Shown piece by piece: positions 31,116 through 54,592 of a stretch of 64,000 nt of DNA. Made by a program: the position numbers and the translations under genes. The notes below the pieces were generated by a model. The model worked only from the letters and a program-made list of their open reading frames with translations, was not told where the DNA came from and made no database searches. Within the stretch, counting starts at the first letter, position 1; each line of letters begins with the position of its first letter. Source of the stretch: Gammaproteobacteria bacterium (GTDB lineage Bacteria > Pseudomonadota > Gammaproteobacteria > HyVt-429). The stretch spans positions 13,046 to 77,045 of the forward strand of contig JAADGI010000018.1 in NCBI GenBank assembly GCA_013152415.1. The letters are read 5' to 3'.

Positions 31116-32582
31116 TTGTTGCCTTTTAAAAAACAGCACCACTTTATGAATAAAATACACTGCAAACATCATCCTACTGCACCCGCAAGTTGGACGTGCG
31201 ACCAATGCGGCACAGATCTTTGTTCATCGTGCATCAAGCATGACTATTTGCCTGATAAAGTTGCCGTATGCCCAGTCTGCGACCAGAATTTACGTTCGCT
31301 TGGATCCGAAAATTTGATCCAGCCATTTTGGCTCCGAATACCAAGATTTTTTCTATTCCCCTTAAACATATCTTCCCTCTTGTACATTGGGGCATTGTCG
31401 CTAGTTAGCATTATTACATTTCAACCATCGCTTATCGGCTTGCTTTTTCAGTTAGCCATCTTTCTGGTTTTCCTAAAATATGCCTATGCTGTCCTGGCCC
31501 AACGAGCGGCCGGTTATGAAAGCCCACCCGAAATAAACGCAGATATGATCAACCAGGGATTAGATTTGCCCTTCAAACAGCTCGGCATATTTCTTCTTAT
31601 TGGGTTTATCGGTGGAGCTGTATACCGGAATACTGGACCAGTAGCGGCATACGTTTACGACATAATCATTAATCTCTTTATCCCTGCAACAGTTATGGTA
31701 TTAGCGATTGACAACAGTTTCTTTCGCGCAATAAACCCCATACTGCTGTTTTCCATTATTAGGCGAATGGGTTTGCCGTATCTAATACTCTGTATATTTC
31801 TTTTAATTTTACAGGGTGGGGGAGGATTAGTGATGAGTTTATTCGGTCGTCCTGAATCTTTCTTGGCAGCACTGTTTATCTTCAATATTTTTTCAATGTA
31901 TTTTTTACTCATTATGTTCAACATGATGGGATATGCGATATACCAACACCACGAAGCTCTGGGTTATCCAATTGAAATCGAACCTGATGAGCAAACGAGA
32001 AAAACCAATCAGGAATCAACAAAACAATATGTGGGCATGCCAAATGATATCGAAGTTCTCATTAAAGAAGGCCAAATAGCCAAAGTAGTTGGCCGTCTAA
32101 AAGCACTGATAAAAACACAGCCTGGCGAAATTTCAACTCATCGCCTACTCCATAAACTGGCTATGATGGCAAATGATACTGTTGCAGTGCTTGATAACGG
32201 AGAGAGCCTAATCTCTAAACTCATAGAACGCAATTACACCGGAGAAGCAGCGAGTGTTATTGTAGACATCATGACACTACAATCTTCATTTCAGATTGGA
32301 AATGCAGATCTAATATATCCACTTGCCAGACAGCTGGTTTCCACGGGAAAAGGGCAACATGCACTCGATATAATAAATGGATATGCTCAACGCTTCCCAC
32401 AACATCCTGATATCCCACGGCTGTATCTACTGGCCGCCAAGATACTTTGTGAAACATTAAAAAAGGACAATAGAGCCAAAGGACTACTGGTCAACCTACT
32501 AAAAACGTACCCGAAACACGAACTGGCACCTGAGATTGCATCATATCTAGAGGTGGTTAATAGGCTATCAACTTCGCACTAA
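31116..32582 (+). CDS. Polytopic membrane protein with an N-terminal B-box-like zinc finger and a C-terminal helical (TPR-like) domain
   Basis: C-x2-H-x8-C-x2-C-x4-C-x2-C-x3-H-x9-C-x2-C cluster at the N-terminus, about 6 TM helices, and a C-terminal soluble helical domain. Confidence 0.6.
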   Translation: MLPFKKQHHFMNKIHCKHHPTAPASWTCDQCGTDLCSSCIKHDYLPDKVAVCPVCDQNLRSLGSENLIQPFWLRIPRFFLFPLNISSLLYIGALSLVSIITFQPSLIGLLFQLAIFLVFLKYAYAVLAQRAAGYESPPEINADMINQGLDLPFKQLGIFLLIGFIGGAVYRNTGPVAAYVYDIIINLFIPATVMVLAIDNSFFRAINPILLFSIIRRMGLPYLILCIFLLILQGGGGLVMSLFGRPESFLAALFIFNIFSMYFLLIMFNMMGYAIYQHHEALGYPIEIEPDEQTRKTNQESTKQYVGMPNDIEVLIKEGQIAKVVGRLKALIKTQPGEISTHRLLHKLAMMANDTVAVLDNGESLISKLIERNYTGEAASVIVDIMTLQSSFQIGNADLIYPLARQLVSTGKGQHALDIINGYAQRFPQHPDIPRLYLLAAKILCETLKKDNRAKGLLVNLLKTYPKHELAPEIASYLEVVNRLSTSH

Positions 32583-32599
32583 CATACTGGCCCCAATCG

Positions 32600-34060
32600 C
32601 TAACAACGTTGACGTTTTGCAAGCTTGGCAGCATGGCTGCCTGAATATATATCAGAGAGTAATTTCAGATAATGCCTGTGCTTGTTTTCCTTGCCTTCAC
32701 GACAAAATGCGGTTGCTAGCATTAAGAGTCCATCTGGCAAGCCAGCCAAATCCTTATCTTTCTTAAGAAGATAGGTGAAGATTTGTTCGGCATTATTAGT
32801 GTAACCACCTTTGGCAAAACAAACCCCCAGTTCGCAAAACTCTTTTGATGACATTCTCATGGTGGGTCTGGCGTGCTTACTATAGTCCGAAAATATCTCG
32901 TTGGCTGTCATCAAATAATGTTGGTCACCCATGCCCATTTTGAGTAATTTAAGAGCGATGCTATGGTAGCCGTCAGACAACGGGTGCATCTTATTGATGC
33001 GATAGAGTTTCACCAACACTTCTTGATCATCGGGGTCGCGTTGTAACATCTCTTTAAACACTCGTTTGGCCTTCTCGAATTCCAATTCCGCCATAAAGTT
33101 CAAACCTCGTTCAAGATCACTTATGCGCCGTTGCTTCTCAGATGACTCATTAATGTAGTCAAAATCTACAGTCCGAAATACCTTCGCTTGCAGCAAACCG
33201 ATTGCTGCACCGCCTAAATACCCCCCAATATGCACGACATAAGCAATCCTCTGGTAGCCATTAAAAACACCATACCACTCGTTCAGCAGCCATAAGGGTA
33301 TAAGAATAATGGCTGGCGCTTTTACAAAATCAAAATAAAAGACTATCCAATAAAAAAATCTTATTTTACGCACACCAAAAAGTACTGAGTAGAGACCCAT
33401 TACTGCACTAATAGCGCCCGAGGCTCCAAGAACCGAACGGTCTGGATACACTAGAGCCCAAAGTCCTATTGACAACAACCCACCCAAAATATAAGAAAAA
33501 AAGAACTGGGTATGTCCTAATATTCGCTCTACTGCAAAACCGACAATGAATAGAAATAGCATGTTGCCCACAAGGTGGCCTAGGCTACCGTGTAGAAATG
33601 CAGATGTTATATATGTAATGGCATCGTTACGATGGAAGGAATAATTATTTGTTACCAAGCGGCCATACATTCGGTCGAATTTAATTCGAGAAAGTTTCCA
33701 TTTAATAAATTTGGGATGCGCGATAGTTATGATTTCATTGCGATGGAGTTTTTCCATAAACTCGCCAGTATATTGAATATCATAGAATATCCACATTGCC
33801 TGTTTATTTTGACTTACTGATTCCCTCACAGAGGCTGAATGTTCATACTCACCAACGCTACTTAGATAATCAGCAAATAGCGGAAACTCTATGACATGCA
33901 ATTTAGCTGCAAAGTAATAGTTTGATGCTTGTGCTAGCCTTTTAGCATCGCCCCCTTGAATAACAAAAAAAACAAATATGTTAATCAGCACTAAAGCGAT
34001 GGTGACAAATGGAGGATTTTTCCAATTAATATTCTTTTCTAGAGGTATGAGTAACAACAC
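32600..34060 (-). CDS. Rhomboid-family intramembrane serine protease with C-terminal TPR-like domain
   Basis: GASGAISAV (GxSG) catalytic serine and a downstream His inside TM helices. The C-terminal third is soluble and helical. Confidence 0.8.
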   Translation of the reverse strand: MLLLIPLEKNINWKNPPFVTIALVLINIFVFFVIQGGDAKRLAQASNYYFAAKLHVIEFPLFADYLSSVGEYEHSASVRESVSQNKQAMWIFYDIQYTGEFMEKLHRNEIITIAHPKFIKWKLSRIKFDRMYGRLVTNNYSFHRNDAITYITSAFLHGSLGHLVGNMLFLFIVGFAVERILGHTQFFFSYILGGLLSIGLWALVYPDRSVLGASGAISAVMGLYSVLFGVRKIRFFYWIVFYFDFVKAPAIILIPLWLLNEWYGVFNGYQRIAYVVHIGGYLGGAAIGLLQAKVFRTVDFDYINESSEKQRRISDLERGLNFMAELEFEKAKRVFKEMLQRDPDDQEVLVKLYRINKMHPLSDGYHSIALKLLKMGMGDQHYLMTANEIFSDYSKHARPTMRMSSKEFCELGVCFAKGGYTNNAEQIFTYLLKKDKDLAGLPDGLLMLATAFCREGKENKHRHYLKLLSDIYSGSHAAKLAKRQRC

Positions 34061-34482: not shown

Positions 34483-34706
34483 ACTCTCCCACCAAAAATA
34501 ACAAGCCCCGAATGATGCGCACGGGCAACTCAGTCAGCCCCTTACACATACAAATTAACGCCCCAGGGCACTCAAATCGGCCTGATTATTCCGTCACAGG
34601 CGCTATAATATTAGCAATTCCCCTTATACTGAGCTCGTAGCCATGGCATGATCATTTTCTGGTCACCCACAGCGGATTGAAACGACACAGTGGACACGGG
34701 CGCACA

Positions 34707-36011
34707 ATGAATAAAGTCATTAAGAACGTCCCATATGAAGATGAAGTACACGTTGTCAAGCCAGCGACGACACAATCGCTGGCGCACAATTCTGACCTGA
34801 TTTACAACGTCCTCACCGCAGTTTCCAAGGCCCACGCCGAGGGCAAAGCCGCCCTGGTCGAACGTTATGGCTTTACCCGTACCCAGGCAGAAACCATCGC
34901 CCGTCTTTCTGCCCACGAACTCCATCGTCTTAGTGATCCCAAGCTCAAATTATTTAACATGCATATGGACACGGATGCACTGGATCACATGCTCGTACAT
35001 ATGCAAAAAGAGGAACGGCACCGGGCGCTTCAAGATCGACTGCTTTCTCTGGGTGCCCCTGCACCACTGATGCAAGAACTCTTTGGCTGGAGCGCCCAGG
35101 ACTGCGCTGACCGCCGCAAGGCCTTAGACATTTCCGGAGCCGATACGGGACGCCCCCGGCGCACCACTGAAGAGGAAGACCAAGCCATCTGGAAATCGTG
35201 GAATGGAAGCCTGGGAATGACCAAGGCTGAACGCTATGAGACAGTGGCCAGCGAGACCGGGATGCGACTCAATTTGATCTGGGCCCAGGTCAAAGGCTGG
35301 ACCAATGAAGGAGTACCCCTGTCTGAAAATGATTCTTTTATTGAGGACTCACAAAACACGCCCATTTCAGAACGGGTACCCCCGATCATTTCTAAAAGCA
35401 AAACCTCCCTGCGGCGCAGACTGTGGCATCGCTTCACACACCGCCCGGACTCCGAGCACGATCAGGCACTAATACGCCTGTTCGCTGCACCCTGCCTGAT
35501 AGCCTATGGTTATTTTGTGGCACCCTACGATCAATATGCCGCACTACAGCTAGCAGAAACCCAACGTATGCTGCTATTGGTAGGGGCAGTCTTCTTCACT
35601 GTCACCGTCCTGCTTACCCTGTCTATCTTAATCTGGCCAAAGACTGTTGAATCGAGACGTTACGCCTCTATCTGCCTGGATGTCGTGGGGTGTACCATTT
35701 TTATTGGCTACCTGGGTGACTTTGGCGTCCTATTCTACGTCATGTATCTATGGGCCATTGTCGGTGGTGGTTTTCGTTATGGCGTCAACTACTTGATTGT
35801 CGCCACCGTGGTCTCCATGACAGGGTTTAGTATTGTATTCTCCATCCACCCCTACTGGCAGTCCCTTGGGGCCATACCCTACTGCTTACTCGCTGGTCTG
35901 TTTGTCGTCCCGGCCTGGACACTGGCCTGGATGCACAGCAAAACACGGGCCCAGCGGCGCGCTCAACAGGTGCGTATTGGTGTACATACCATATTGCCCT
36001 ATCTGGAATAG
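34707..36011 (+). CDS. Two-domain protein: N-terminal soluble domain resembling DUF2857 (an ICE-associated family) fused to a C-terminal 5-6 TM domain
   Basis: The N-terminal roughly 230 aa resemble DUF2857 proteins from integrative conjugative elements (LGxxxxxMxELFGxxxxD...RRK). The C-terminus is polytopic. The ATG at 34707 is preferred over the TTG at 34677. Confidence 0.5.
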   Translation: MNKVIKNVPYEDEVHVVKPATTQSLAHNSDLIYNVLTAVSKAHAEGKAALVERYGFTRTQAETIARLSAHELHRLSDPKLKLFNMHMDTDALDHMLVHMQKEERHRALQDRLLSLGAPAPLMQELFGWSAQDCADRRKALDISGADTGRPRRTTEEEDQAIWKSWNGSLGMTKAERYETVASETGMRLNLIWAQVKGWTNEGVPLSENDSFIEDSQNTPISERVPPIISKSKTSLRRRLWHRFTHRPDSEHDQALIRLFAAPCLIAYGYFVAPYDQYAALQLAETQRMLLLVGAVFFTVTVLLTLSILIWPKTVESRRYASICLDVVGCTIFIGYLGDFGVLFYVMYLWAIVGGGFRYGVNYLIVATVVSMTGFSIVFSIHPYWQSLGAIPYCLLAGLFVVPAWTLAWMHSKTRAQRRAQQVRIGVHTILPYLE

Positions 36012-36052: not shown

Positions 36053-37120
36053 CTACCCAGGGGGGTGATAGTTAAGGGCGGTCAGTACGGTCCAAGTGGG
36101 ATGAAATTGATCATAGGCATCCCCACTTTGATAGTAGGAAGATGTCCAGGACCCCTGCCTATCCTGAAGGCCAAGAAGGTACCGTTCAGCATCCCGCAAC
36201 TTGGGTAACTCACTATACCCAAGAATCTTTAGGCAATGGACAAACTCGGCAAGAAGATCCCTATCGTTCACAATATCACGCACGGTGTCGAAATGCGCAA
36301 GAAGATAGCCTTCCAACCTTTGTCTAAGCTTGTTTTTTACTGGAGCATGCCGCCCAAAATCAGACATCACAAAGATTAAATGGGTGACATAATAATTCTG
36401 TAAGGAATACTTATCGGCAACGGTATACTCGTACACGAGATCCAAATCCACCAGCTTGGCAAGATACCGATCAAGTACCCCCTGGGGCAGGGCCAAATCA
36501 ATCTTGGGAAATCGCCTTTGCAAACGATCTGGGTAATAAGCGTTGATAACAAGGTCTGTCAATTTTGAGTAGTCTTTCGATATAACGGCGTTATCAAAGA
36601 TGGATTCTTGTTCTGCCCACGGTAACTGATCAAAACCCAAGCGATAGTAGTCCGCAAACTTGTTCACCTCGACACCATATTTGTACACATAAGGCAAAAT
36701 GGCGATAAATTGCTGCCTGGCTGAATCGGTGATAGGGAAGACGGCAGACAAACGCCCCGCCAACCGGCCTAGGGCCTGGCGTGACAGTGCCTCGACATAT
36801 CCCTCCATGGCGGAACCCTGGCTGCCTGTCGCCAGTTCCTCCAGCATAAGCAGATAGTCGGGGGCGATATATTCAAATCGGTTGTCGTCATCTACAAGCG
36901 CCAACACCCACTGCAAACCCCCCAATATGGCATACTCACGGGAGTCGGCTTTGAGCTGATTTTTATCTCGATCAATGGCCCAACAGACTGGGGTGTGGTG
37001 TGTCAGTTGGCAGCGGGGCGAAACCGAATCTACAAGAGCACCCTGTGCCAGGGCAATAGACCCCACACCTAAAAGCCACAGCAGTAATCTCAGTCTCTTG
37101 TATTTCACCACCACCTCCAA
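36053..37120 (-). CDS. Secreted hypothetical protein (signal peptide)
   Basis: N-terminal signal peptide LLLWLLGVGSIALAQG. No family recognised. Confidence 0.5.
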   Translation of the reverse strand: MEVVVKYKRLRLLLWLLGVGSIALAQGALVDSVSPRCQLTHHTPVCWAIDRDKNQLKADSREYAILGGLQWVLALVDDDNRFEYIAPDYLLMLEELATGSQGSAMEGYVEALSRQALGRLAGRLSAVFPITDSARQQFIAILPYVYKYGVEVNKFADYYRLGFDQLPWAEQESIFDNAVISKDYSKLTDLVINAYYPDRLQRRFPKIDLALPQGVLDRYLAKLVDLDLVYEYTVADKYSLQNYYVTHLIFVMSDFGRHAPVKNKLRQRLEGYLLAHFDTVRDIVNDRDLLAEFVHCLKILGYSELPKLRDAERYLLGLQDRQGSWTSSYYQSGDAYDQFHPTWTVLTALNYHPPG

Positions 37121-38448: not shown

Positions 38449-39096
38449 CTATGACGCCGCTGATATCGTCTCGGCTTCCCACTCGGGTGTGGTCTCTGAC
38501 CAGGCCGGTGTTTGGGCAACACGCTGATACCAGGCCTGAACATTGTCATAACTTGACCATGGCATCTTGGCGGGTTCGGCATAGGCAAAACAAGAGGCGA
38601 TGGAAAAATCTGCCAGGGTCAGCTCATCACCACAAATAAATTTATTCGTCTGTAGATGACGATCCAGGACCACGGCACAGTCTTTGAAGCTTTCTGCGGC
38701 CTCTTCCAGCTTGGCTGGATCCGGGGCACCCATATCCAGTATAGGTTTGAGCATATTCTGGAACAAAAATGTATTGGTAGGCAGCGCCAGATGACACATC
38801 TGCCAGGCCAACCATCGATTAACATCGGCCCGCTTTTGGGTGTCCTCGGGGTAGAGTGAGCTGGGTCCAAAACGATCTGCCAAATACTGCATAATGGCAT
38901 TGGACTCCCATAGACTAAAATCACCGTCCACCAGGATGGGTAGCCGCCCGGTGATATTGTGCTGCTGAATCTCTGCTACCTTGTGCTCACCTTTGAGTAA
39001 GTTGGCCACTTCCACATCCACGTCGGCCTTGAGATGGGCCACGGTGGCCAGGACCCGCCACGAATGGTGGGAAGGGGGGAAACAGTAAAGTCGCAT
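38449..39096 (-). CDS. Glutathione S-transferase
   Basis: N-terminal thioredoxin-like GST domain (MRLYCFPPSHHSWRV ...) and a C-terminal helical domain. The start is set at MRLY. Confidence 0.8.
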   Translation of the reverse strand: MRLYCFPPSHHSWRVLATVAHLKADVDVEVANLLKGEHKVAEIQQHNITGRLPILVDGDFSLWESNAIMQYLADRFGPSSLYPEDTQKRADVNRWLAWQMCHLALPTNTFLFQNMLKPILDMGAPDPAKLEEAAESFKDCAVVLDRHLQTNKFICGDELTLADFSIASCFAYAEPAKMPWSSYDNVQAWYQRVAQTPAWSETTPEWEAETISAAS

Positions 39097-39161
39097 ATCC
39101 AAATCCTCCATATTGATGCCAGGCTGGCGGACCAATACTGTACCTACAGGTACAGTATTGG

Positions 39162-39773
39162 TCAAGCCGCCCCGCCCGACTGTCTCAGGGATTTTAAATA
39201 AATCAGGGCATTTTTGACTGCGGCCTCCAGGGCCTGAGGATGACGTTGTACCTTTGACACCAGCAAACCACCCTGCAAAGTAGCAAAACAAAACTGCGCC
39301 AGCTCCTGGGGGTCTGCGCCAACCTTAAGCCTTTTTTGCTCCTTTTGGTTATCAAAAAACCGCTCCAAATTGGCCATCGCCTTGGTAAATACGGCGTTGA
39401 CATCCTGACGGATCAATTCCTGAGCAGGATCAAGCTCATTACCAATTGTGCCGATGGGGCAGCCTCTTTGGCAGTCATACTGCTTGCTGACGGTGACGAA
39501 AAACCCAAACCAGGCCTCCAGACCCTTCCAGGTCCTGATGGGTTGGTTGTTGAATTGACCCTCACACATCTGGGCATAAAAATATTGCAGGGTCTCGTGG
39601 ACCAGGCCTTCTTTGCTGCCAAAGTGATGGTAAAACTGGCTCTTGCCGGTAGCGGTACGATCCATCACGTCCTGGGGACTGGTGGCGCGCACCCCCTGGG
39701 CATGAAACAGATCCATGGCCGCCAGGATCATCCTGTGTTTGGTCTTTTTGGGACGTGCCGATGGGGCTGACAT
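39162..39773 (-). CDS. TetR/AcrR family transcriptional regulator
   Basis: N-terminal HTH (ILAAMDLFHAQGVRATSPQDVMDRTATGKSQFYHHF). Its gene diverges from the giant ORF. Confidence 0.85.
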   Translation of the reverse strand: MSAPSARPKKTKHRMILAAMDLFHAQGVRATSPQDVMDRTATGKSQFYHHFGSKEGLVHETLQYFYAQMCEGQFNNQPIRTWKGLEAWFGFFVTVSKQYDCQRGCPIGTIGNELDPAQELIRQDVNAVFTKAMANLERFFDNQKEQKRLKVGADPQELAQFCFATLQGGLLVSKVQRHPQALEAAVKNALIYLKSLRQSGGAA

Positions 39774-39946
39774 AACTGTACCTCCAGGTCTATTATAATC
39801 CTTCGCCCCGTCCACACAAAAACCCTTTCTTGGTGCTGGGTACCGGCCCGTAGGTCAACTGCCTGCCTCCCTGGCGTTGGTCATGGAAGCAAAAGGCACT
39901 ACACTCAAAGGCTCCACTGCCGGAACTGGATTCGAGGGACGATGTT

Positions 39947-42900
39947 ATGGATCACGACCCCCTAAGGCGCGTTCTTTTTGTACTGTGGTTGTTGGTGCCA
40001 ACCACACTCTACGCCGCCCCCCTGAAACCCGACCGGGTCCCCGAACCCCTCAAACCCTGGGTCGAATGGGCCCTCCACGGTGAAGAACAAAAGACCTGTC
40101 CCTTCACCTACAACAACGAAAAACAACACTATTGCGCCTGGCCCAGCGAACTGCAACTGGAGCTGGATACACGTCAGGGCCAATTTGAACAACGCTGGCA
40201 AGTGCATAGTGAATCCTGGGCGGCACTGCCGGGCAGCCCCAAACACTGGCCCCAGTCGGTGAAGGTCGATGGCCAACCGGCGGTGGTACTCAACCGTGGC
40301 GGTCGACCCACCCTCAAACTGGCAGCCGGCACACATACCGTTGAGGGCAGGTTCACCTGGGACCGCCTCCCCGAATCCCTGTCCATCCCCAGGACCACGG
40401 GTCTGGTGGGTCTCAAGATCAAAAATCGCACAGTCCCTTTCCCAAATTTGGACACAGGGGGTCGCCTGTGGCTGCGGGAGCGGGATACCGACGCTAACAA
40501 AACCAAGCTAGGGGACCGCGTAGAGGTACAAGTCTATCGACGTATTGGGGACTCGATCCCCATGCAGATCACCACCCGCCTGGACCTCACCGTCTCCGGC
40601 ACCCAGCGGGAGATCGTGTTGGGTCCGGTCCTGCTCACTGAGGCCATTCCCCTGAAACTGAAAAGCACCCTGCCCGTGCGCCTGGAGGCAGACGGTCGCC
40701 TGCGTATACAAGTGCGTCCGGGGCGCTGGCAGATCGACTTGGTGGTGCGGTTCCCCGACCCACGCACCCAGTTGTCGGCCCCCGAGACGGGACCGCCCTG
40801 GCCTAAAGACGAGGTCTGGGTACTCGATGCCCGTAACGCGTTGCGCCTGGTGGAGGTCCAGGGGGTCACTCCTATAGACCCCCGCCAGACCAACCTGCCC
40901 AAGGACTGGAAAGACCTTCCCGCCTATCGCATGGGCAAAGGGGAGGTGTTCTCCCTCAAGATATTGCGTCGCGGTGACCCGTCCCCGGAACCCAATGCCC
41001 TCAAATTGCAGCGTACCCTGTGGCTGGATTTTGACGGCGGCGGTTACACCATCAAGGACAATATCAGTGGCCGCATGACCCAGGGTTGGCGCTTGGCCAT
41101 GTCAAACCCCACCCACCTGGGCCGTGTCACCGTCGACGGCAAACCCCAATTCATCACCCGGCTACAAGGTGAGGCCGAGGACGGCATAGAGGTTCGCCGG
41201 GGCGCCATCAGGCTGGAAGCCGACAGCCGCCTGGATAAAGCTGATCGTCGCCTACCGGTAGTGGGCTGGAACCAGGATTTTCAATCTGTCAGCGGCGAAC
41301 TCAACCTGCCCCCAGGCTGGCGCCTGCTCGCTGCCAACGGTGTGGACAAGGTCCCCGGCACTTGGCTGCAACGCTGGACCCTGCTCGACCTGTTCCTGGT
41401 GTTGATCGCCGCCGTCACCACCCTGCGCCTGTGGGACTGGCGAGGTGGGCTGCTGGCCCTGGTCACCCTGGGCCTGGTCTGGCACGAACCGGGGGCACCA
41501 CAAAATGTCTGGCTCAACATCCTCGCCGCCATCGCGCTGCTGCGGGTGCTGCCCGCCAATCGTTTGCGCACTGCGGTGACGTGGTATCGCAACGCCAGCC
41601 TCCTGGCCCTGGTGTTGATCGCCATCCCCTTCATGATCGATCAGGTACGCACCGGCCTGTACCCGCAACTGGAACGGCCCGGGCAACTTCGGCTCCTCGA
41701 CACACGCACGGATGACCGCCTTGAGATCACAGAACTCGCCGCACCCTTGGTGCAAAAACAGTTACTTGGTGCAATGAAGGCACAGACGGCCAAGCCAAAA
41801 CCCGCCTACAAGGATAAACACACTCGCAAGTTGCGATCAAAAATGCTCTATTCCCCGCAACAACAGGCCATTGACATCAATCAGCAAATCGACCCCAAGG
41901 CCCATATCCAAACCGGACCGGGCATCCCCAACTGGCGTTGGACCCGCATCCCCCTGAGTTGGAGTGGGCCGGTCAAAAAAGATCAAACCATGTCCCTGGT
42001 ATTGCTGTCCCCAGCATCCAATATGATCTTACAGTTTATTCAAATCCTGTTGCTGTTGGCCCTGGCCCTGTTCTTATCAGGGGTGATGCGAATCACAAAC
42101 AAAGGTATCCGCCTGGGCGCCCCCGTTCTGATGGCCGCATTGCTGGCAGGCAACCTGTTGGCACTGACACCCTCACCGGCACAGGCCGACATACCCACAC
42201 CAGAAATATTGAAGACTCTTAAGGAACGTTTGTTGGCACCCCCCGAGTGCCTGCCTCAATGCGCCCAGATTCCACGGCTGCAGTTGCAGCTGTCGCCCCA
42301 CACCTTGAGCGCCCGCATGGAGATACACACCCAGGAGGCCGTGGCGGTACCCCTGCCCGGTCACGCCAAACATTGGTTGCCCACTGAGGTCTTGGTCGAC
42401 GGCAAAATGGCCCAGGGCCTGTTCCGTAAAAATGGTGGGCTGTGGCTACAGCTTGCCCCCGGCAGACACCAAATCCTCATGGCCGGGCCTCTGCCCCAAC
42501 GCAACAATCTGGAATTGCCCCTGCCCCTGCGGCCCCATCATGTGCGCATCACCACCAAGGGGTGGTCCGTGGACGGCGTCCATGAAAACGGGCTTGTCGA
42601 TCAACAACTGCAACTTACCCGCAGTCGCGGCAGCGCCCCCCGCTTGCAGACACTTCAGTCCGACACCCTGCCACCCTTTGTCCGCGTGGTACGCACCCTG
42701 CACCTGGGACTCGACTGGCGGCTCGAGACCCGCGTGGTACGTGCCTCACCCAAGGGTGCGGCAATCTTGCTGGAAGTCCCCCTGCTCGGCAAAGAATCGG
42801 TGACCACCGATGGGGTGCGCATCAAGGATGGCAAAGTCCTGGTCAACATGTCCGCCGGTCAAACACGGATGGTCTGGCATTCAACCCTGGAGAAACAGGA

Positions 42901-44047
42901 CAGTCTCACCCTCACCGCCGCAGACACCTCCCGGTGGGTGGAGCAATGGCGTCTCGATGTGAGTCCCATCTGGCATCCCACCTTCTCCGGCATCCCGGTG
43001 GTACACCACCAAAACCGGGGCCAATGGTTACCCACCTGGCAACCCTGGCCCGGCGAATCCATCACCCTGAAAATACACCGCCCACAAGGCGTGGACGGAC
43101 GGACCCTTACTATTGATAGCAGTCAACTCAGTGTAGAACCCGGTCTACGGGCCACGGACCTGACTCTGAATTTCTCACTGCGCAGCAGTCAGGGCGGACA
43201 ACACACAATTACGATTCCCGAGGGGACACAATTACAATCGGTGACCATCAACAGCCGCCCCCAACCCATACGCCAGGACGGCAACAAGATCACCTTGCCC
43301 GTTGTCCCCGGCAGCCAGCGTGTCGTGCTTAAACTACGCAGCGACCAGGGCATCAAGACCGGGTTGACCACCCCGGCCATCCACCTGGGTGCGGCCAGCG
43401 TGAACCATCGACTGCACCTGACCCTGCCCCGGGATCGCTGGGTCTTGTTTGTAGGCGGACCAGACCTGGGACCGGCGGTGTTATTTTGGGGGGTACTCAT
43501 CGTGTTGGTCCTGTTGGCCTGGGGACTTGGCCGGATACCGTTGACGCCCCTGAAACATTGGCACTGGTTATTGTTGTTGATCGGCCTGAGCCAAGTCCCA
43601 GTATGGACGGGAGCCACCGTCGTGGCCTGGTTACTGGTACTGGGGATGCGGGCACGACTGGACGCAAACATCGGTCAACAACGTTTTGATCTCATGCAGA
43701 TCACCATTGTCCTACTGACCGTGCTCGCACTGTTGTTGTTATTCAACGCCGTGAAACAGGGCTTGCTGGGTACACCGGACATGCAGATTGCCGGTAACGG
43801 CTCCCACGCCTTCCGCCTCAACTGGTACCAGGACCGCAGCGGTGAAACCCTGCCCACCGCTTGGGTCGCATCGGTGCCGCTGTTTATCTACCGGTTTCTT
43901 ATGCTGGCCTGGGCACTATGGTTGGCCTTCGCCCTGCTACGCTGGTTGCGTTGGGGCTGGGAGTGCTTTGCCACCAATGGGCTGTGGCGTAAAGTGGCGG
44001 AAAAGAAAACGACAAAGAAAACAAAAAAGGGCGTCAAGAAAAAGTGA
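39947..44047 (+). CDS. Giant (1366 aa) internally duplicated envelope protein of unknown family, ending in a lysine-rich tail
   Basis: Signal peptide, a periplasmic domain of about 450 aa and a 4-TM cluster, then a second signal-like segment (ALTPSPAQA-D), a homologous second domain and a second TM cluster. It ends KKTTKKTKKGVKKK. Confidence 0.7.
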   Translation: MDHDPLRRVLFVLWLLVPTTLYAAPLKPDRVPEPLKPWVEWALHGEEQKTCPFTYNNEKQHYCAWPSELQLELDTRQGQFEQRWQVHSESWAALPGSPKHWPQSVKVDGQPAVVLNRGGRPTLKLAAGTHTVEGRFTWDRLPESLSIPRTTGLVGLKIKNRTVPFPNLDTGGRLWLRERDTDANKTKLGDRVEVQVYRRIGDSIPMQITTRLDLTVSGTQREIVLGPVLLTEAIPLKLKSTLPVRLEADGRLRIQVRPGRWQIDLVVRFPDPRTQLSAPETGPPWPKDEVWVLDARNALRLVEVQGVTPIDPRQTNLPKDWKDLPAYRMGKGEVFSLKILRRGDPSPEPNALKLQRTLWLDFDGGGYTIKDNISGRMTQGWRLAMSNPTHLGRVTVDGKPQFITRLQGEAEDGIEVRRGAIRLEADSRLDKADRRLPVVGWNQDFQSVSGELNLPPGWRLLAANGVDKVPGTWLQRWTLLDLFLVLIAAVTTLRLWDWRGGLLALVTLGLVWHEPGAPQNVWLNILAAIALLRVLPANRLRTAVTWYRNASLLALVLIAIPFMIDQVRTGLYPQLERPGQLRLLDTRTDDRLEITELAAPLVQKQLLGAMKAQTAKPKPAYKDKHTRKLRSKMLYSPQQQAIDINQQIDPKAHIQTGPGIPNWRWTRIPLSWSGPVKKDQTMSLVLLSPASNMILQFIQILLLLALALFLSGVMRITNKGIRLGAPVLMAALLAGNLLALTPSPAQADIPTPEILKTLKERLLAPPECLPQCAQIPRLQLQLSPHTLSARMEIHTQEAVAVPLPGHAKHWLPTEVLVDGKMAQGLFRKNGGLWLQLAPGRHQILMAGPLPQRNNLELPLPLRPHHVRITTKGWSVDGVHENGLVDQQLQLTRSRGSAPRLQTLQSDTLPPFVRVVRTLHLGLDWRLETRVVRASPKGAAILLEVPLLGKESVTTDGVRIKDGKVLVNMSAGQTRMVWHSTLEKQDSLTLTAADTSRWVEQWRLDVSPIWHPTFSGIPVVHHQNRGQWLPTWQPWPGESITLKIHRPQGVDGRTLTIDSSQLSVEPGLRATDLTLNFSLRSSQGGQHTITIPEGTQLQSVTINSRPQPIRQDGNKITLPVVPGSQRVVLKLRSDQGIKTGLTTPAIHLGAASVNHRLHLTLPRDRWVLFVGGPDLGPAVLFWGVLIVLVLLAWGLGRIPLTPLKHWHWLLLLIGLSQVPVWTGATVVAWLLVLGMRARLDANIGQQRFDLMQITIVLLTVLALLLLFNAVKQGLLGTPDMQIAGNGSHAFRLNWYQDRSGETLPTAWVASVPLFIYRFLMLAWALWLAFALLRWLRWGWECFATNGLWRKVAEKKTTKKTKKGVKKK

Positions 44048-44344: not shown

Positions 44345-45211
44345 ATGGAAGAAATACATAACATAATAAAAAAATACAATAAAGGTCATGTTGATGATAG
44401 CCTGAATTCCTTAGAGGATATCAAAGCCTTTTCGCTGGTGTTTTTTAAAGATGTTTCAGAAGTATATGATTGCATAACGAGATTAAAAAACACAAAAAGG
44501 AACCCCACTGGGTATTCATTAGATGATGCGCCTATAATTGCGTTATTAGTTAAAATATGGAAACTTCTTAAAGAAATAATTGTGTATTATGAAAAAGACA
44601 ATGCTGAAATAATTAGTTTATTTGAACGCCCGCTAATCGAATCTTCAGTGACGGCTAGTTATTTATTAAAATCAAACAGCCAAGCAATAGAAGACTATAG
44701 AAAAATATCTTACAAAGATCGCTTGAGGATATTACGAGAACTAAAAGAAGGATCTGCTTTCTACGAGACAAAAGCCGGAAAAAGATTATTGAAATCTGTT
44801 CAAGAAAAAATGAATTTTGAAAAGTTGACAATTGATGACTTTCAAGAACAAAAACGAAATAGATGGCGGTTACAAAACAAGTCTTTTTTCGATATTTTCA
44901 AGGAGATTGAAGGGAAAGATCTTTACGCTTGTACATACGGCATGATGTCTGAAGCTGTACATTGCTCTTGGAATGACTCTTTAGATTGGTGTCTAAGTAA
45001 AAACGATGATGATACTTTTGATGTTTATCCTTTCTACCAAACCGCTGACATTCGTCACATATCGCCAACTTTAGTATTTTGCAATCGACCATATAAACTT
45101 TGGCTGCAACACATAGATATAACAGATACATATATAAATGATGTGTTGCAGTGGATTGAAAATATAAACTCTATGATATATGTTGCCTTCGATGAATTAT
45201 ATGATGAGTAA
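44345..45211 (+). CDS. Hypothetical protein in low-GC island (about 33% GC)
   Basis: 288-aa ORF with strongly AT-biased codon usage, unlike the surrounding sequence. No family recognised. Confidence 0.6.
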   Translation: MEEIHNIIKKYNKGHVDDSLNSLEDIKAFSLVFFKDVSEVYDCITRLKNTKRNPTGYSLDDAPIIALLVKIWKLLKEIIVYYEKDNAEIISLFERPLIESSVTASYLLKSNSQAIEDYRKISYKDRLRILRELKEGSAFYETKAGKRLLKSVQEKMNFEKLTIDDFQEQKRNRWRLQNKSFFDIFKEIEGKDLYACTYGMMSEAVHCSWNDSLDWCLSKNDDDTFDVYPFYQTADIRHISPTLVFCNRPYKLWLQHIDITDTYINDVLQWIENINSMIYVAFDELYDE

Positions 45212-45482
45212 AAATACGGCTAACAAACTCAAGAGGACAAAGAAGAAAGGGGGCAGATCACTTGCTTCATAACACATGCACCTTGCTCAGGCCGCCACAC
45301 ATTGAATACAAAAATCAGACACCTGGGACACGCATAAATTACTTGGCCTCACTAAATTAGTGAGGAAATTTTAACGGTACGTTTTGCATATCGCCATAAC
45401 GTGATCCGAAAAACAATCGAGGTCAGACACCGTAGAATAGCCATAAAGTCCTTGAAGAAAATATTTTAGGTAAAAACGAGAG

Positions 45483-46130
45483 ATGCTTAGCTACTGTGAA
45501 GTCATAAAATTTTATGACGCGTTCGGCAAGAGACAGGACAAACAATTCTACGAGAAAGCGGCAATTAACGATCTGATTGAACAGGGTCAATTTGACGAGG
45601 CAAAAAATATAATAGAATTTGGTTGTGGCACCGGGAAGCTGGCATCTCGTTTATTGGCCTGTATCACGCCTGACAGTTGCCATTATTTAGGGGTCGATAT
45701 CAGCCAAACCATGGTCTCTCTTTGCCGAAAAAATATTGGGTCCTTTTCAGAACGTGCAACATGCTATAAAACTGAAGGGGAATCGAGAATAGATGCCCCA
45801 GATCAAACTGCCGACCGATTTATTTCCACCTATGTGCTCGACTTGCTGACCGAAGAAGACGCCATAAGCCTGCTAAACGAGGCACATCGAGTACTCCTGC
45901 CAGGGGGGTATTTGTGCCTCGCCAGTTTAACCCATGGCATTTCGTTCGTTTCACGTATTGTAGAGATTTTATGGCGCAGGCTGTACCAATTAAAACCCTT
46001 TATTGTAGGCGGCTGCCGCCCAATAAATTTAAAAAAATACCTGCAAAATGATCAATGGCATGTTGTTCATGACCCGGTCATTGTGTCTTACGGTGTTCCA
46101 TCGGAAGTGGTAATCGCAAAAAGGCTATAA
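45483..46130 (+). CDS. Class I SAM-dependent methyltransferase (small-molecule type)
   Basis: Motif I IEFGCGTGKL and motif post-I/II (LLPGGYLCL). About 42% GC. Confidence 0.75.
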   Translation: MLSYCEVIKFYDAFGKRQDKQFYEKAAINDLIEQGQFDEAKNIIEFGCGTGKLASRLLACITPDSCHYLGVDISQTMVSLCRKNIGSFSERATCYKTEGESRIDAPDQTADRFISTYVLDLLTEEDAISLLNEAHRVLLPGGYLCLASLTHGISFVSRIVEILWRRLYQLKPFIVGGCRPINLKKYLQNDQWHVVHDPVIVSYGVPSEVVIAKRL

Positions 46131-46275
46131 ACCGTAGAATCGGGGGCAATTCACTTGAAATGGGATAAATCCGTGGGTTAAGGTGTGCCACGCATACCTG
46201 ACCCTTGGGCTGGTCCTTGGGGGTTTAATACCGTCACCCACAGCAAACAAACCTTCTAACCGGAGATCCTGTTAC

Positions 46276-46689
46276 ATGAATCATAGATGGCTATGGCTGC
46301 TTTTAGCAATTTTTAGTGGAAATGCACAATCGTTTCAACCATCAATAGAAATTATTGAACAATTTGATGATGTTAAGCTGGTTGCATTTATAAATGAAAC
46401 CGATATTGAAAATTATCCCCTGTGGCACCCATTAACAGAAGCGCCGCCTTTGTCCGTAAGCAAGGCAATTCAAGCCATCAAAGATCTGTACAAGACAAAC
46501 CGTGATCAGTTGCTTCCAAAGTCGGTCAAGGAAATAGAACTAAGAGAGCTGTCACGGCATGAATATTACTGGCACTATCTGGTTAAGGTAAAGACCAATG
46601 ACGACAAAAAACCTAAATATCAAATTTACGTGGTTTTAATGAACGGAAAAGTAATCCCTGCATTGATTGAATCAGAGTCATACAAATAA
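46276..46689 (+). CDS. Small secreted hypothetical protein
   Basis: Signal peptide (LWLLLAIFSGNAQS) and a GGAGA RBS. About 38% GC. Confidence 0.5.
   Translation: MNHRWLWLLLAIFSGNAQSFQPSIEIIEQFDDVKLVAFINETDIENYPLWHPLTEAPPLSVSKAIQAIKDLYKTNRDQLLPKSVKEIELRELSRHEYYWHYLVKVKTNDDKKPKYQIYVVLMNGKVIPALIESESYK

Positions 46690-52589: not shown

Positions 52590-54592
<2,003 letters not shown>

Follow-up and report, generated by a model that had tools for sequence, protein, structure and literature searches.

The locus and its large gene

A 64,000-nucleotide stretch of DNA from a Gammaproteobacteria bacterium (GenBank assembly GCA_013152415.1, contig JAADGI010000018.1, positions 13,046 to 77,045 of the forward strand), referred to here as the window, carries a large gene at 39947..44047 (+) whose product of 1366 amino acids (aa) is the subject of this analysis. 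The gene had been picked out in an earlier reading of the letters without database searches (the sequence-only reading), and the open reading frame (ORF) was found as described there. A GAGG-type ribosome-binding site lies 9-14 nt upstream, and the ORF is a real gene. An identical protein (P0001) is labelled 'hypothetical protein GXP09_07435, Gammaproteobacteria MAG' (MAG, metagenome-assembled genome).

Hydropathy analysis of the product revealed an N-terminal signal-like segment, a transmembrane (TM) cluster at residues 477-567, a hydrophobic pair at 693-741, a further TM cluster at 1177-1330, and finally the Lys-rich tail that the sequence-only reading had also reported. The second hydrophobic segment of the pair is directly followed by ...PSPAQA and then D (...ALTPSPAQA plus D being residues 739-748). 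The features of the gene and of its upstream flank are collected in Table 1. The GC content of the gene (0.60) and its GC content at third codon positions (GC3, 0.715) were the highest among 29 window ORFs examined, the window mean GC being 0.516; the high GC is partly explained by richness in Gly, Pro, Ala, Arg, and Trp.

Table 1. Coordinates of the large gene, its predicted parts and its upstream flank in the window
Feature	Position	Strand	Remarks
Complete ORF, 1366 aa + stop	39947..44047	+	predicted precursor of a two-module inner-membrane protein
N-terminal Sec-type signal peptide, residues 1-23, predicted cut between TLYA and AP	39947..40015	+	hydrophobic segment, helix 5-20
Module 1 periplasmic region, residues 24-475	40016..41371	+	
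Module 1 TM1-4, residues 479-495, 498-511, 519-534, 539-571	41381..41659	+	pLDDT 88-95, conservation 0.54-0.71
Variable, disordered, partly basic insertion, residues 580-656, periplasmic by topology	41684..41914	+	pLDDT <50; gappy, unconserved
Module 1 periplasmic beta-hairpin (666-687) and TM5 (689-711)	41942..42079	+	AlphaFold models
Junction: basic cytoplasmic loop (712-722) and predicted internal Sec-type signal peptide (723-747)	42080..42187	+	
Module 2 periplasmic region, residues 748-1175	42188..43471	+	
Module 2 membrane domain, TM1'-4', hairpin 1290-1311 and TM5' 1312-1342	43484..43972	+	hydropathy, AlphaFold
Cytoplasmic Lys-rich tail, residues 1343-1366	43973..44044	+	sequence unconserved
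Spacer shared with the divergent TetR gene, 173 bp	39774..39946	.	promoter-like site 39767-39796 (+)
TetR-family regulator, TetR_N + TetR_C_13 (Pfam)	39162..39773	-	context only, not a conserved partner
Glutathione S-transferase, GST_N + GST_C (Pfam)	38449..39099	-	context only

The protein is built of two homologous modules

BLASTP of one half of the protein against the other gave one significant stretch, residues 63-132 against 771-842 (E = 7e-6). With a 224-sequence alignment, hhalign matched residues 62-164 to 771-876 (probability 97.6%, E = 3.3e-12) and residues 194-462 to 912-1169 over 249 columns (probability 90%, E = 1.7e-6); the membrane parts (483-572 and 1185-1274) were collinear at an E value of 0.023, which is not significant. 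Two AlphaFold models were obtained with 119-sequence alignments, one of residues 1-690 (predicted local distance difference test, pLDDT, 85.1) and one of residues 470-1366 (pLDDT 81.3). The secondary structure elements of these models paired one to one between the modules, from the first strand (64-73 and 773-782) to the last strands before the membrane (459-464 and 1164-1170), and the pairing ran on through four helices (479-571 and 1180-1274), a beta-hairpin (666-687 and 1290-1311), and a fifth helix (689-711 and 1312-1342). In addition, the motifs that follow TM4 agreed by sequence (GLYPQLE...IQTGPGIPNW in module 1, GLLGTPDMQIAGNGSHAFRLNW in module 2). The alignments and the one-to-one pairing of elements bear out the two homologous modules proposed in the sequence-only reading, and this architecture and its origin by tandem duplication of a module of ~620-750 residues are highly probable.

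In each module, a signal peptide is followed by three beta-sandwich domains in the periplasm, a set of four TM helices, a beta-hairpin on the periplasmic side, and a fifth TM helix. The sequence-only reading had given each module a cluster of four TM helices; those four were recovered, and the hairpin and the fifth helix had been missed. The basic linker by which it had joined the modules did not hold up, since that segment (~580-656) is a disordered insert lying between TM4 and the hairpin. It was assigned to module 1 and not to an inter-module linker because its pLDDT falls below 50 and the alignment is gappy.

The periplasmic region of module 1 contains a short helix, a near-invariant Cys51/Cys63 pair, and the beta-sandwich domains D1 (~62-175) and D2-D3 (~191-464), and that of module 2 contains a helix (752-762), a Cys768/Cys772 pair, D1' (~771-892), and D2'-D3' (~912-1170). 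The motif QTGPG.P.W.W...W.GPV, invariant or nearly so in the family, marks the hairpin and TM5 region of module 1, whose counterpart in module 2 is the hairpin at 1290-1311 with TM5'. TM1'-4' correspond to residues 1180-1195, 1204-1214, 1219-1236, and 1244-1274. TM5' is the most conserved helix of the protein (0.76), and conservation of the ten TM helices other than the internal signal segment ranged from 0.54 to 0.76.

The large beta regions were placed outside the cytoplasm because they lie downstream of signal peptides and bear near-invariant Cys pairs, C51/C63 and C768/C772 both falling in predicted periplasmic parts. The loops predicted to be cytoplasmic (496-499, 535-541, 712-722, 1196-1203, 1235-1243, and the C-terminal tail) were all basic, those predicted to be periplasmic were all neutral or acidic, and the positive-inside rule was kept throughout. 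The signal peptides, Cys pairs, and loop charges agree with the periplasmic location that the sequence-only reading had given the large domains. Overall, the two-module protein has essentially no cytoplasmic mass.

A predicted signal peptide forms the module junction

Residues 712-747 show the features of a Sec-type signal peptide, namely a basic n-region, a hydrophobic (h-) region (723-741), and a c-region with small residues at -3 and -1 (P742-x-x-A745-x-A747), with a predicted cut between A747 and D748. Among 224 diverse full-length homologues, the A747 column (-1) was Ala in 207 and a small residue in 219, position -3 was Ala, Val, Ser, Thr, Gly, or Leu in 202, and position +1 was Asp or Glu in 181. 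The loop that precedes the h-region had a median of three Lys or Arg and no acidic residues in the same set, and the h-region had a median of 18 residues. Position -6 was Pro in 97 of 120 homologues. At the N-terminal signal peptide, Ala occupied -1 in 94 of 120 homologues, and Ala, Leu, or Val occupied -3 in 83.

Conservation of the internal h-region was as low (0.30) as that of the N-terminal signal peptide (0.27), in contrast to the ten other TM helices. Moreover, the internal segment was the sole helix modelled with low confidence, with a pLDDT of 43-66 against about 90 or more in the other helices. The site statistics agree with the cleavable-looking signal sequence (...ALTPSPAQA before D) that the sequence-only reading had noticed in mid-protein, and by these sequence features the true junction of the modules is a predicted complete Sec-type signal peptide. 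It is unusual for a bacterial membrane protein to have a conserved signal peptide inside the chain, at the junction of its repeats.

Free-standing single-module relatives

A search for single-module homologues in other genomes, which had been suggested with the sequence-only reading, was successful. Free-standing relatives of 626-656 aa occur in Desulfobacterota, including proteins of Candidatus Magnetoglobus and Candidatus Magnetomorum, and are 37-49% identical to module 2 over the full length and 24-28% identical to module 1. They begin with an ordinary signal peptide ending in A-x-A, followed by (D/E)(F/I/Y)P..LL..L..RLL..P.C.P.CA, and the latter motif also directly follows A747 in the two-module proteins. 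The internal signal peptide is homologous to these N-terminal signal peptides, for example one that reads MKIIPTIIIIALLINPSAMA before the cut and DFPPSDLLKTLETRLL after it. The combined length of h- and c-region had a median of 22 residues at the internal site, compared with 19 in the single-module signal peptides. Module 2 is the orthologue of the free-standing proteins and module 1 is the diverged copy.

The single-module genes stand alone, amid unrelated neighbours. In one such locus (L084, 6077-11992; L085 likewise), the single-module gene P0247 is preceded by a HigB/HigA-like pair and followed by a 90-aa ORF and a gene for a 1433-aa HEAT-repeat membrane protein, and genes for a cNMP-binding (cyclic nucleotide monophosphate) protein and a spermine-synthase-like protein lie further along. 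The HEAT-repeat protein was considered as a family member and rejected as unrelated.

The family is large and matches no known family

A first search gave 2707 relatives of the 1366-aa protein at 90% clustering. The best 120 were all 1297-1408 aa long (119 of them 1341-1408 aa) and 50-57% identical, nearly all covering 97-100% of the query. A HMMER scan with residues 690-1366 returned at least 2578 representatives at 50% identity clustering, 1494 of them with E <1e-30. When one genome per GTDB species was scanned, at least 511 species carried the gene; the hosts were chiefly Gammaproteobacteria (Methylococcales, Chromatiales, Thiotrichales, and Beggiatoales, as well as Zobellella and Oceanisphaera), and sporadic matches occurred in Desulfuromonadales, Myxococcales, Mariprofundaceae, and Binatia. 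A copy of 1364 aa (WP_015452075.1, labelled 'hypothetical protein') resides on the megaplasmid pAZKH of Azoarcus sp. KH32C. Two further copies lie on contigs binned as 'Klebsiella pneumoniae' (a MAG; L073) and 'Promethearchaeota archaeon' (L082), which probably reflect binning contamination and not true hosts.

Searches of Pfam, NCBIfam, and PADLOC with the 1366-aa query gave zero matches, Pfam searches with 35 diverse family members at E values up to 5 gave scattered noise only, and a whole-family profile searched against PDB sequences at E values up to 5 gave 0 matches. Precomputed Pfam domains were found on none of the family proteins retrieved, and no literature on the family was found. 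All copies with a credible source name were 'hypothetical'; the names assigned to two homologues by the Prokaryotic Genome Annotation Pipeline (PGAP), 'lysostaphin resistance A-like' and 'YkgJ family', were rejected for want of profile support. These empty searches bear out the earlier view that neither module could be assigned to a known family, and the family is new at the level of both protein family and architecture.

Fold comparison with known proteins

Modelling of each half followed by Foldseek, a check proposed with the sequence-only reading, showed that both halves share their best fold matches in the PDB, the N-domain of M1 aminopeptidases and Ost1/ribophorin I. With the module 2 model, ribophorin I/Ost1 ranked first (E = 7.6e-8 to 3.8e-6), followed by integrin calf-type domains and the M1 aminopeptidase N-terminal domain, and the module 2 membrane domain gave no specific match in the fold search against the PDB. 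It is the second and third domains of each module that have the fold of the M1 N-domain and Ost1/ribophorin I, and the first domain has the disulphide-type Cys pair.

The beta-sandwich fold is that of the N-terminal domain in aminopeptidases M1 and M61, in leukotriene A4 hydrolase, and in TAF2, at 4-15% identity, although the present protein has no thermolysin-like catalytic domain, HExxH motif, or Peptidase_M1 match. Because of this low identity and the missing HExxH, the similarity was taken as fold resemblance to a non-catalytic beta-sandwich and not as family membership. Like Ost1/ribophorin I, the protein combines tandem beta-sandwiches on the luminal side, here the periplasm, with a membrane anchor. 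However, there was no Pfam Ribophorin_I match and TM-scores were low (0.12-0.25); Ost1 has one TM helix and works within a multi-subunit enzyme, whereas the present protein is duplicated with ~10 TM helices, and no STT3/PglB-like or other conserved neighbour lies beside the family gene. The non-catalytic Ost1 and M1 N-domains line substrate paths.

Genomic context

The sequence-only reading had described a TetR gene diverging from the large ORF with a glutathione S-transferase (GST) gene just beyond, and the positions and Pfam domains agree. The mechanically called GST ORF, 38449-39291 (-), begins 64 codons before the likely start codon (Met65, 39099) and extends into the 3' end of the TetR gene. 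From the TetR gene to the GST gene there is a gap of 62 bp on the same strand, which suggests that the two form their own, possibly autoregulated, unit or operon. In the spacer 39774-39946, 0 inverted repeats were found, and 0 imperfect 7-mer palindromes compared with 1.9 expected. No Rfam elements were found near the large gene.

In the well-assembled genomes of Sulfuriflexus, Methylocaldum, and Zobellella, the neighbours of the family gene are entirely different. When flanking ORFs were clustered over 83 loci, no family occurred in more than 13, and no neighbour from the 64-kb window recurred. The commonest cluster (13 of the 83 loci) was an apparent chemoreceptor family with one annotated member carrying MCPsignal, and was judged common enough for chance to explain. 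No TetR homologue was detected in 86 other loci by tblastn and phmmer. A GST gene was near the family gene in three of ~90 loci (the present window and, both within ~2 kb, Sulfuriflexus and Azoarcus pAZKH), which by estimate is about the chance level, and TetR and GST together never recurred near the family gene across the ~90 loci. GST, FKBP, and isoaspartyl peptidase neighbours were each seen at three loci at most. On pAZKH (L090, 4736-9744), the gene for the 1364-aa homologue shares 4 bp with the start of an isoaspartyl peptidase/L-asparaginase gene and is divergent from a gene for a secreted FKBP isomerase; FKBP is also nearby in L089 and L044, and three of ~90 loci are too few for a link. 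With good confidence, the family gene stands alone, without a conserved neighbour across ~90 loci. The envelope system proposed in the sequence-only reading is in this respect a single gene and not a multi-gene system. Over the family as a whole, no link of expression to a TetR regulator holds, and any TetR regulation would be specific to the present locus.

Other features of the window

Immediately downstream of the large gene, a low-GC block at 44345-46689 encodes a DUF5677 protein (GC 0.32, GC3 0.29), a class I methyltransferase (45483-46130), and an unassigned 168-aa ORF. With it, base composition changes abruptly at the 3' end of the large gene, and the block looks like a small acquired island. 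A second low-GC pair at 31116-34060 (GC 0.41) encodes a 488-aa protein with only a weak B-box zinc-finger match and, convergently, a 486-aa rhomboid-domain protein. The gene at 34677-36011 (+) encodes DUF2857 (E = 5e-36) followed by a C-terminal multi-TM region weakly like DUF4118 and adjoins a gene for a DUF6895 protein at 36053-37120 (-); both are uncharacterised. A thiamine pyrophosphate (TPP) riboswitch (RF00059, 63.3 bits) at 54496-54587 (-) lies directly upstream of thiC at 52590-54479 (-) (ThiC_Rad_SAM, E = 3.5e-183), an ordinary thiamine-regulated arrangement.

Discussion

The two-module gene may be explained by tandem duplication of a single-module gene followed by fusion, with the signal peptide of the second copy staying functional. 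Signal peptidase I would then cut the precursor between A747 and D748 on the periplasmic face, the internal h-region would remain as the C-terminal helix of the first product, and the two products (~24-747 and 748-1366) would remain associated as a pseudo-two-fold heterodimer. In the single-module relatives, the equivalent assembly would be a homodimer, which would be the ancestral state. We lean towards cleavage of the precursor by signal peptidase I because the junction keeps a complete signal peptide with a conserved P-x-x-A-x-A site before D or E; two paralogous subunits, assembled as a pseudo-symmetric heterodimer, would be the modestly favoured product.

The cytochrome b/c1 precursor FbcH of Bradyrhizobium contains an internal signal peptide that is processed to give two subunits of one complex, and to our knowledge it is the only precedent for an internal signal peptide at such a bacterial junction. 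Both proteins would be bacterial membrane polyproteins with an internal signal peptide before a second, periplasm-exposed part. FbcH is, however, an unrelated protein, and the products of the present precursor would be paralogous copies of which the cleavage is a prediction. A literature search on bacterial internal signal peptides, FbcH, and Ost1 versus the aminopeptidase fold returned nothing usable.

The activity of the protein must face the periplasm, since it has no cytoplasmic domain, ATPase, or conserved partner gene. The paired beta-sandwich arms might serve to bind an envelope polymer or an unfolded polypeptide, or to hold it, above a platform formed by the conserved, Trp-rich, and largely apolar membrane domain of ~10 helices. 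Such a periplasm-facing binding or handling platform, suggested by analogy of fold, is the best guess at a function, speculative and of low confidence. It was preferred over ion-coupled transport because of the missing cytoplasmic domain, ATPase, and partner gene and because the conserved charges lie at helix ends.

Several observations weigh against cleavage and against the platform. The argument for cleavage is drawn from the protein sequence itself, and the internal h-regions are somewhat longer than those of typical signal peptides. As a general principle, long h-regions favour uncleaved signal-anchors (PMC2120157). A natural split gene at the junction was sought among the 83 loci and none was found. 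Short ORFs in L044, L063, L021, and L025 were considered as split genes and rejected, as they look like assembly frameshifts or contig-end fragments, and database matches of 850-1136 aa were rejected as new fusions, being fragments of two-module proteins. The platform proposal, in turn, has fold analogy as its basis, and the beta-sandwich is a common fold without a catalytic signature. Moreover, the TM helices are very strongly conserved, which might indicate that the protein acts in transport or as an enzyme and not as a scaffold.

The same conservation is what keeps a different reading in view, in which the polypeptide stays uncleaved with 12 TM helices, the middle segment acts as a signal-anchor, and the protein is a transporter of envelope lipid or polymer with RND/SecDF-like topology, driven by the proton motive force or passive. 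Proteins of the RND superfamily (AcrB, SecDF, MmpL) have the established topology of 2 x (TM + large periplasmic domain + 5 TM), and stand-alone relatives include SecDF, MmpL, and HpnN. The present inner-membrane protein resembles them in its internal duplication and in this plan, and its internal h-region is slightly longer than that of the single-module signal peptides. However, no ACR_tran, MMPL, SecD_SecF, or Patched match appeared in Pfam with the query or with the 35 diverse members, and no sequence or fold similarity to RND proteins was found in the membrane or periplasmic parts. The periplasmic fold is a beta-sandwich and not the RND porter fold, and the conserved charged residues lie at helix ends, no charge relay in mid-membrane being obvious. 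The family further differs from RND proteins in having a cleavage-type signal peptide where the repeats join, and a plain anchor would hardly account for a -3/-1 site that more than 90% of sequences keep. On these grounds the transporter is rather unlikely, although it stays under consideration because of the very high conservation of the TM helices.

Other alternatives fare less well. The residues H841, H1010, H1086, E950, E999, and E1037, together with C768/C772, are kept in at least 90% of two-module and at least 80% of single-module proteins, and equivalents of the His residues are absent from module 1, which makes the pair asymmetric. Conservation of these His and Glu in module 2 alone would fit a candidate asymmetric active or metal site, and a periplasmic metal-binding or metal-handling membrane protein, with a putative site formed by the module 2 His, Glu, and Cys, would also suit the many hosts that oxidise methane, sulphur, or iron. 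No known metal-binding motif or family match was found, however, and the carrier organisms are metabolically diverse, so that this reading is very unlikely. Ligand-controlled expression of the large gene through TetR, proposed in the sequence-only reading, would make the large gene, the divergent TetR gene, and the GST gene one envelope, detoxification, or stress system. Although the divergent arrangement across a 173-bp spacer with a promoter-like site and the GST genes near the homologues in Sulfuriflexus and Azoarcus pAZKH are in keeping with it, this reading is not supported because TetR did not recur in the other loci, neighbours were not shared beyond the 13 of 83 loci noted above, and the spacer lacks a palindrome; in addition, GST proximity is at about the chance level, and the co-oriented TetR and GST genes can be an autoregulated unit of their own. 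Such a system is highly improbable. Two findings had been named in the sequence-only reading as what would overturn it, namely an aerotolerance protein of the Bat or von Willebrand type and two genes fused by artefact. The resemblance to BatD and other Bat proteins is superficial (signal peptide, beta-rich periplasmic domains, and TM anchors): no BatD or VWA match appeared with the query and the 35 members at E values up to 5, and no bat-like operon was seen among the 83 loci. A fusion by sequencing error is excluded by more than 200 diverse, collinear full-length homologues (1330-1480 aa) from independent assemblies, in which the architecture is conserved. Both explanations are extremely improbable.

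The full picture, offered tentatively as possible rather than probable, is that of a predicted new inner-membrane machine of diderm bacteria, in which a tandem precursor cut by signal peptidase I would yield a pseudo-symmetric heterodimer with Ost1-like arms and an undescribed envelope function. Its membrane fold would be one without a solved relative, and the arms would handle, for example, secreted polypeptides or glycans at the membrane surface. If true, the cleavage would give a clean bacterial case in which signal peptidase resolves a membrane polyprotein at a signal peptide inside the chain. No domain model covers the family, and no structure of a relative has been solved. Its members number in the thousands and come from methanotrophs, from oxidisers of sulphur and iron, from large sulphur bacteria, and from multicellular magnetotactic bacteria; the common marine genera Zobellella and Oceanisphaera also carry it. 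Its study could add a new membrane-domain fold and could supply a bacterial context for the Ost1/ribophorin-type beta-sandwich.

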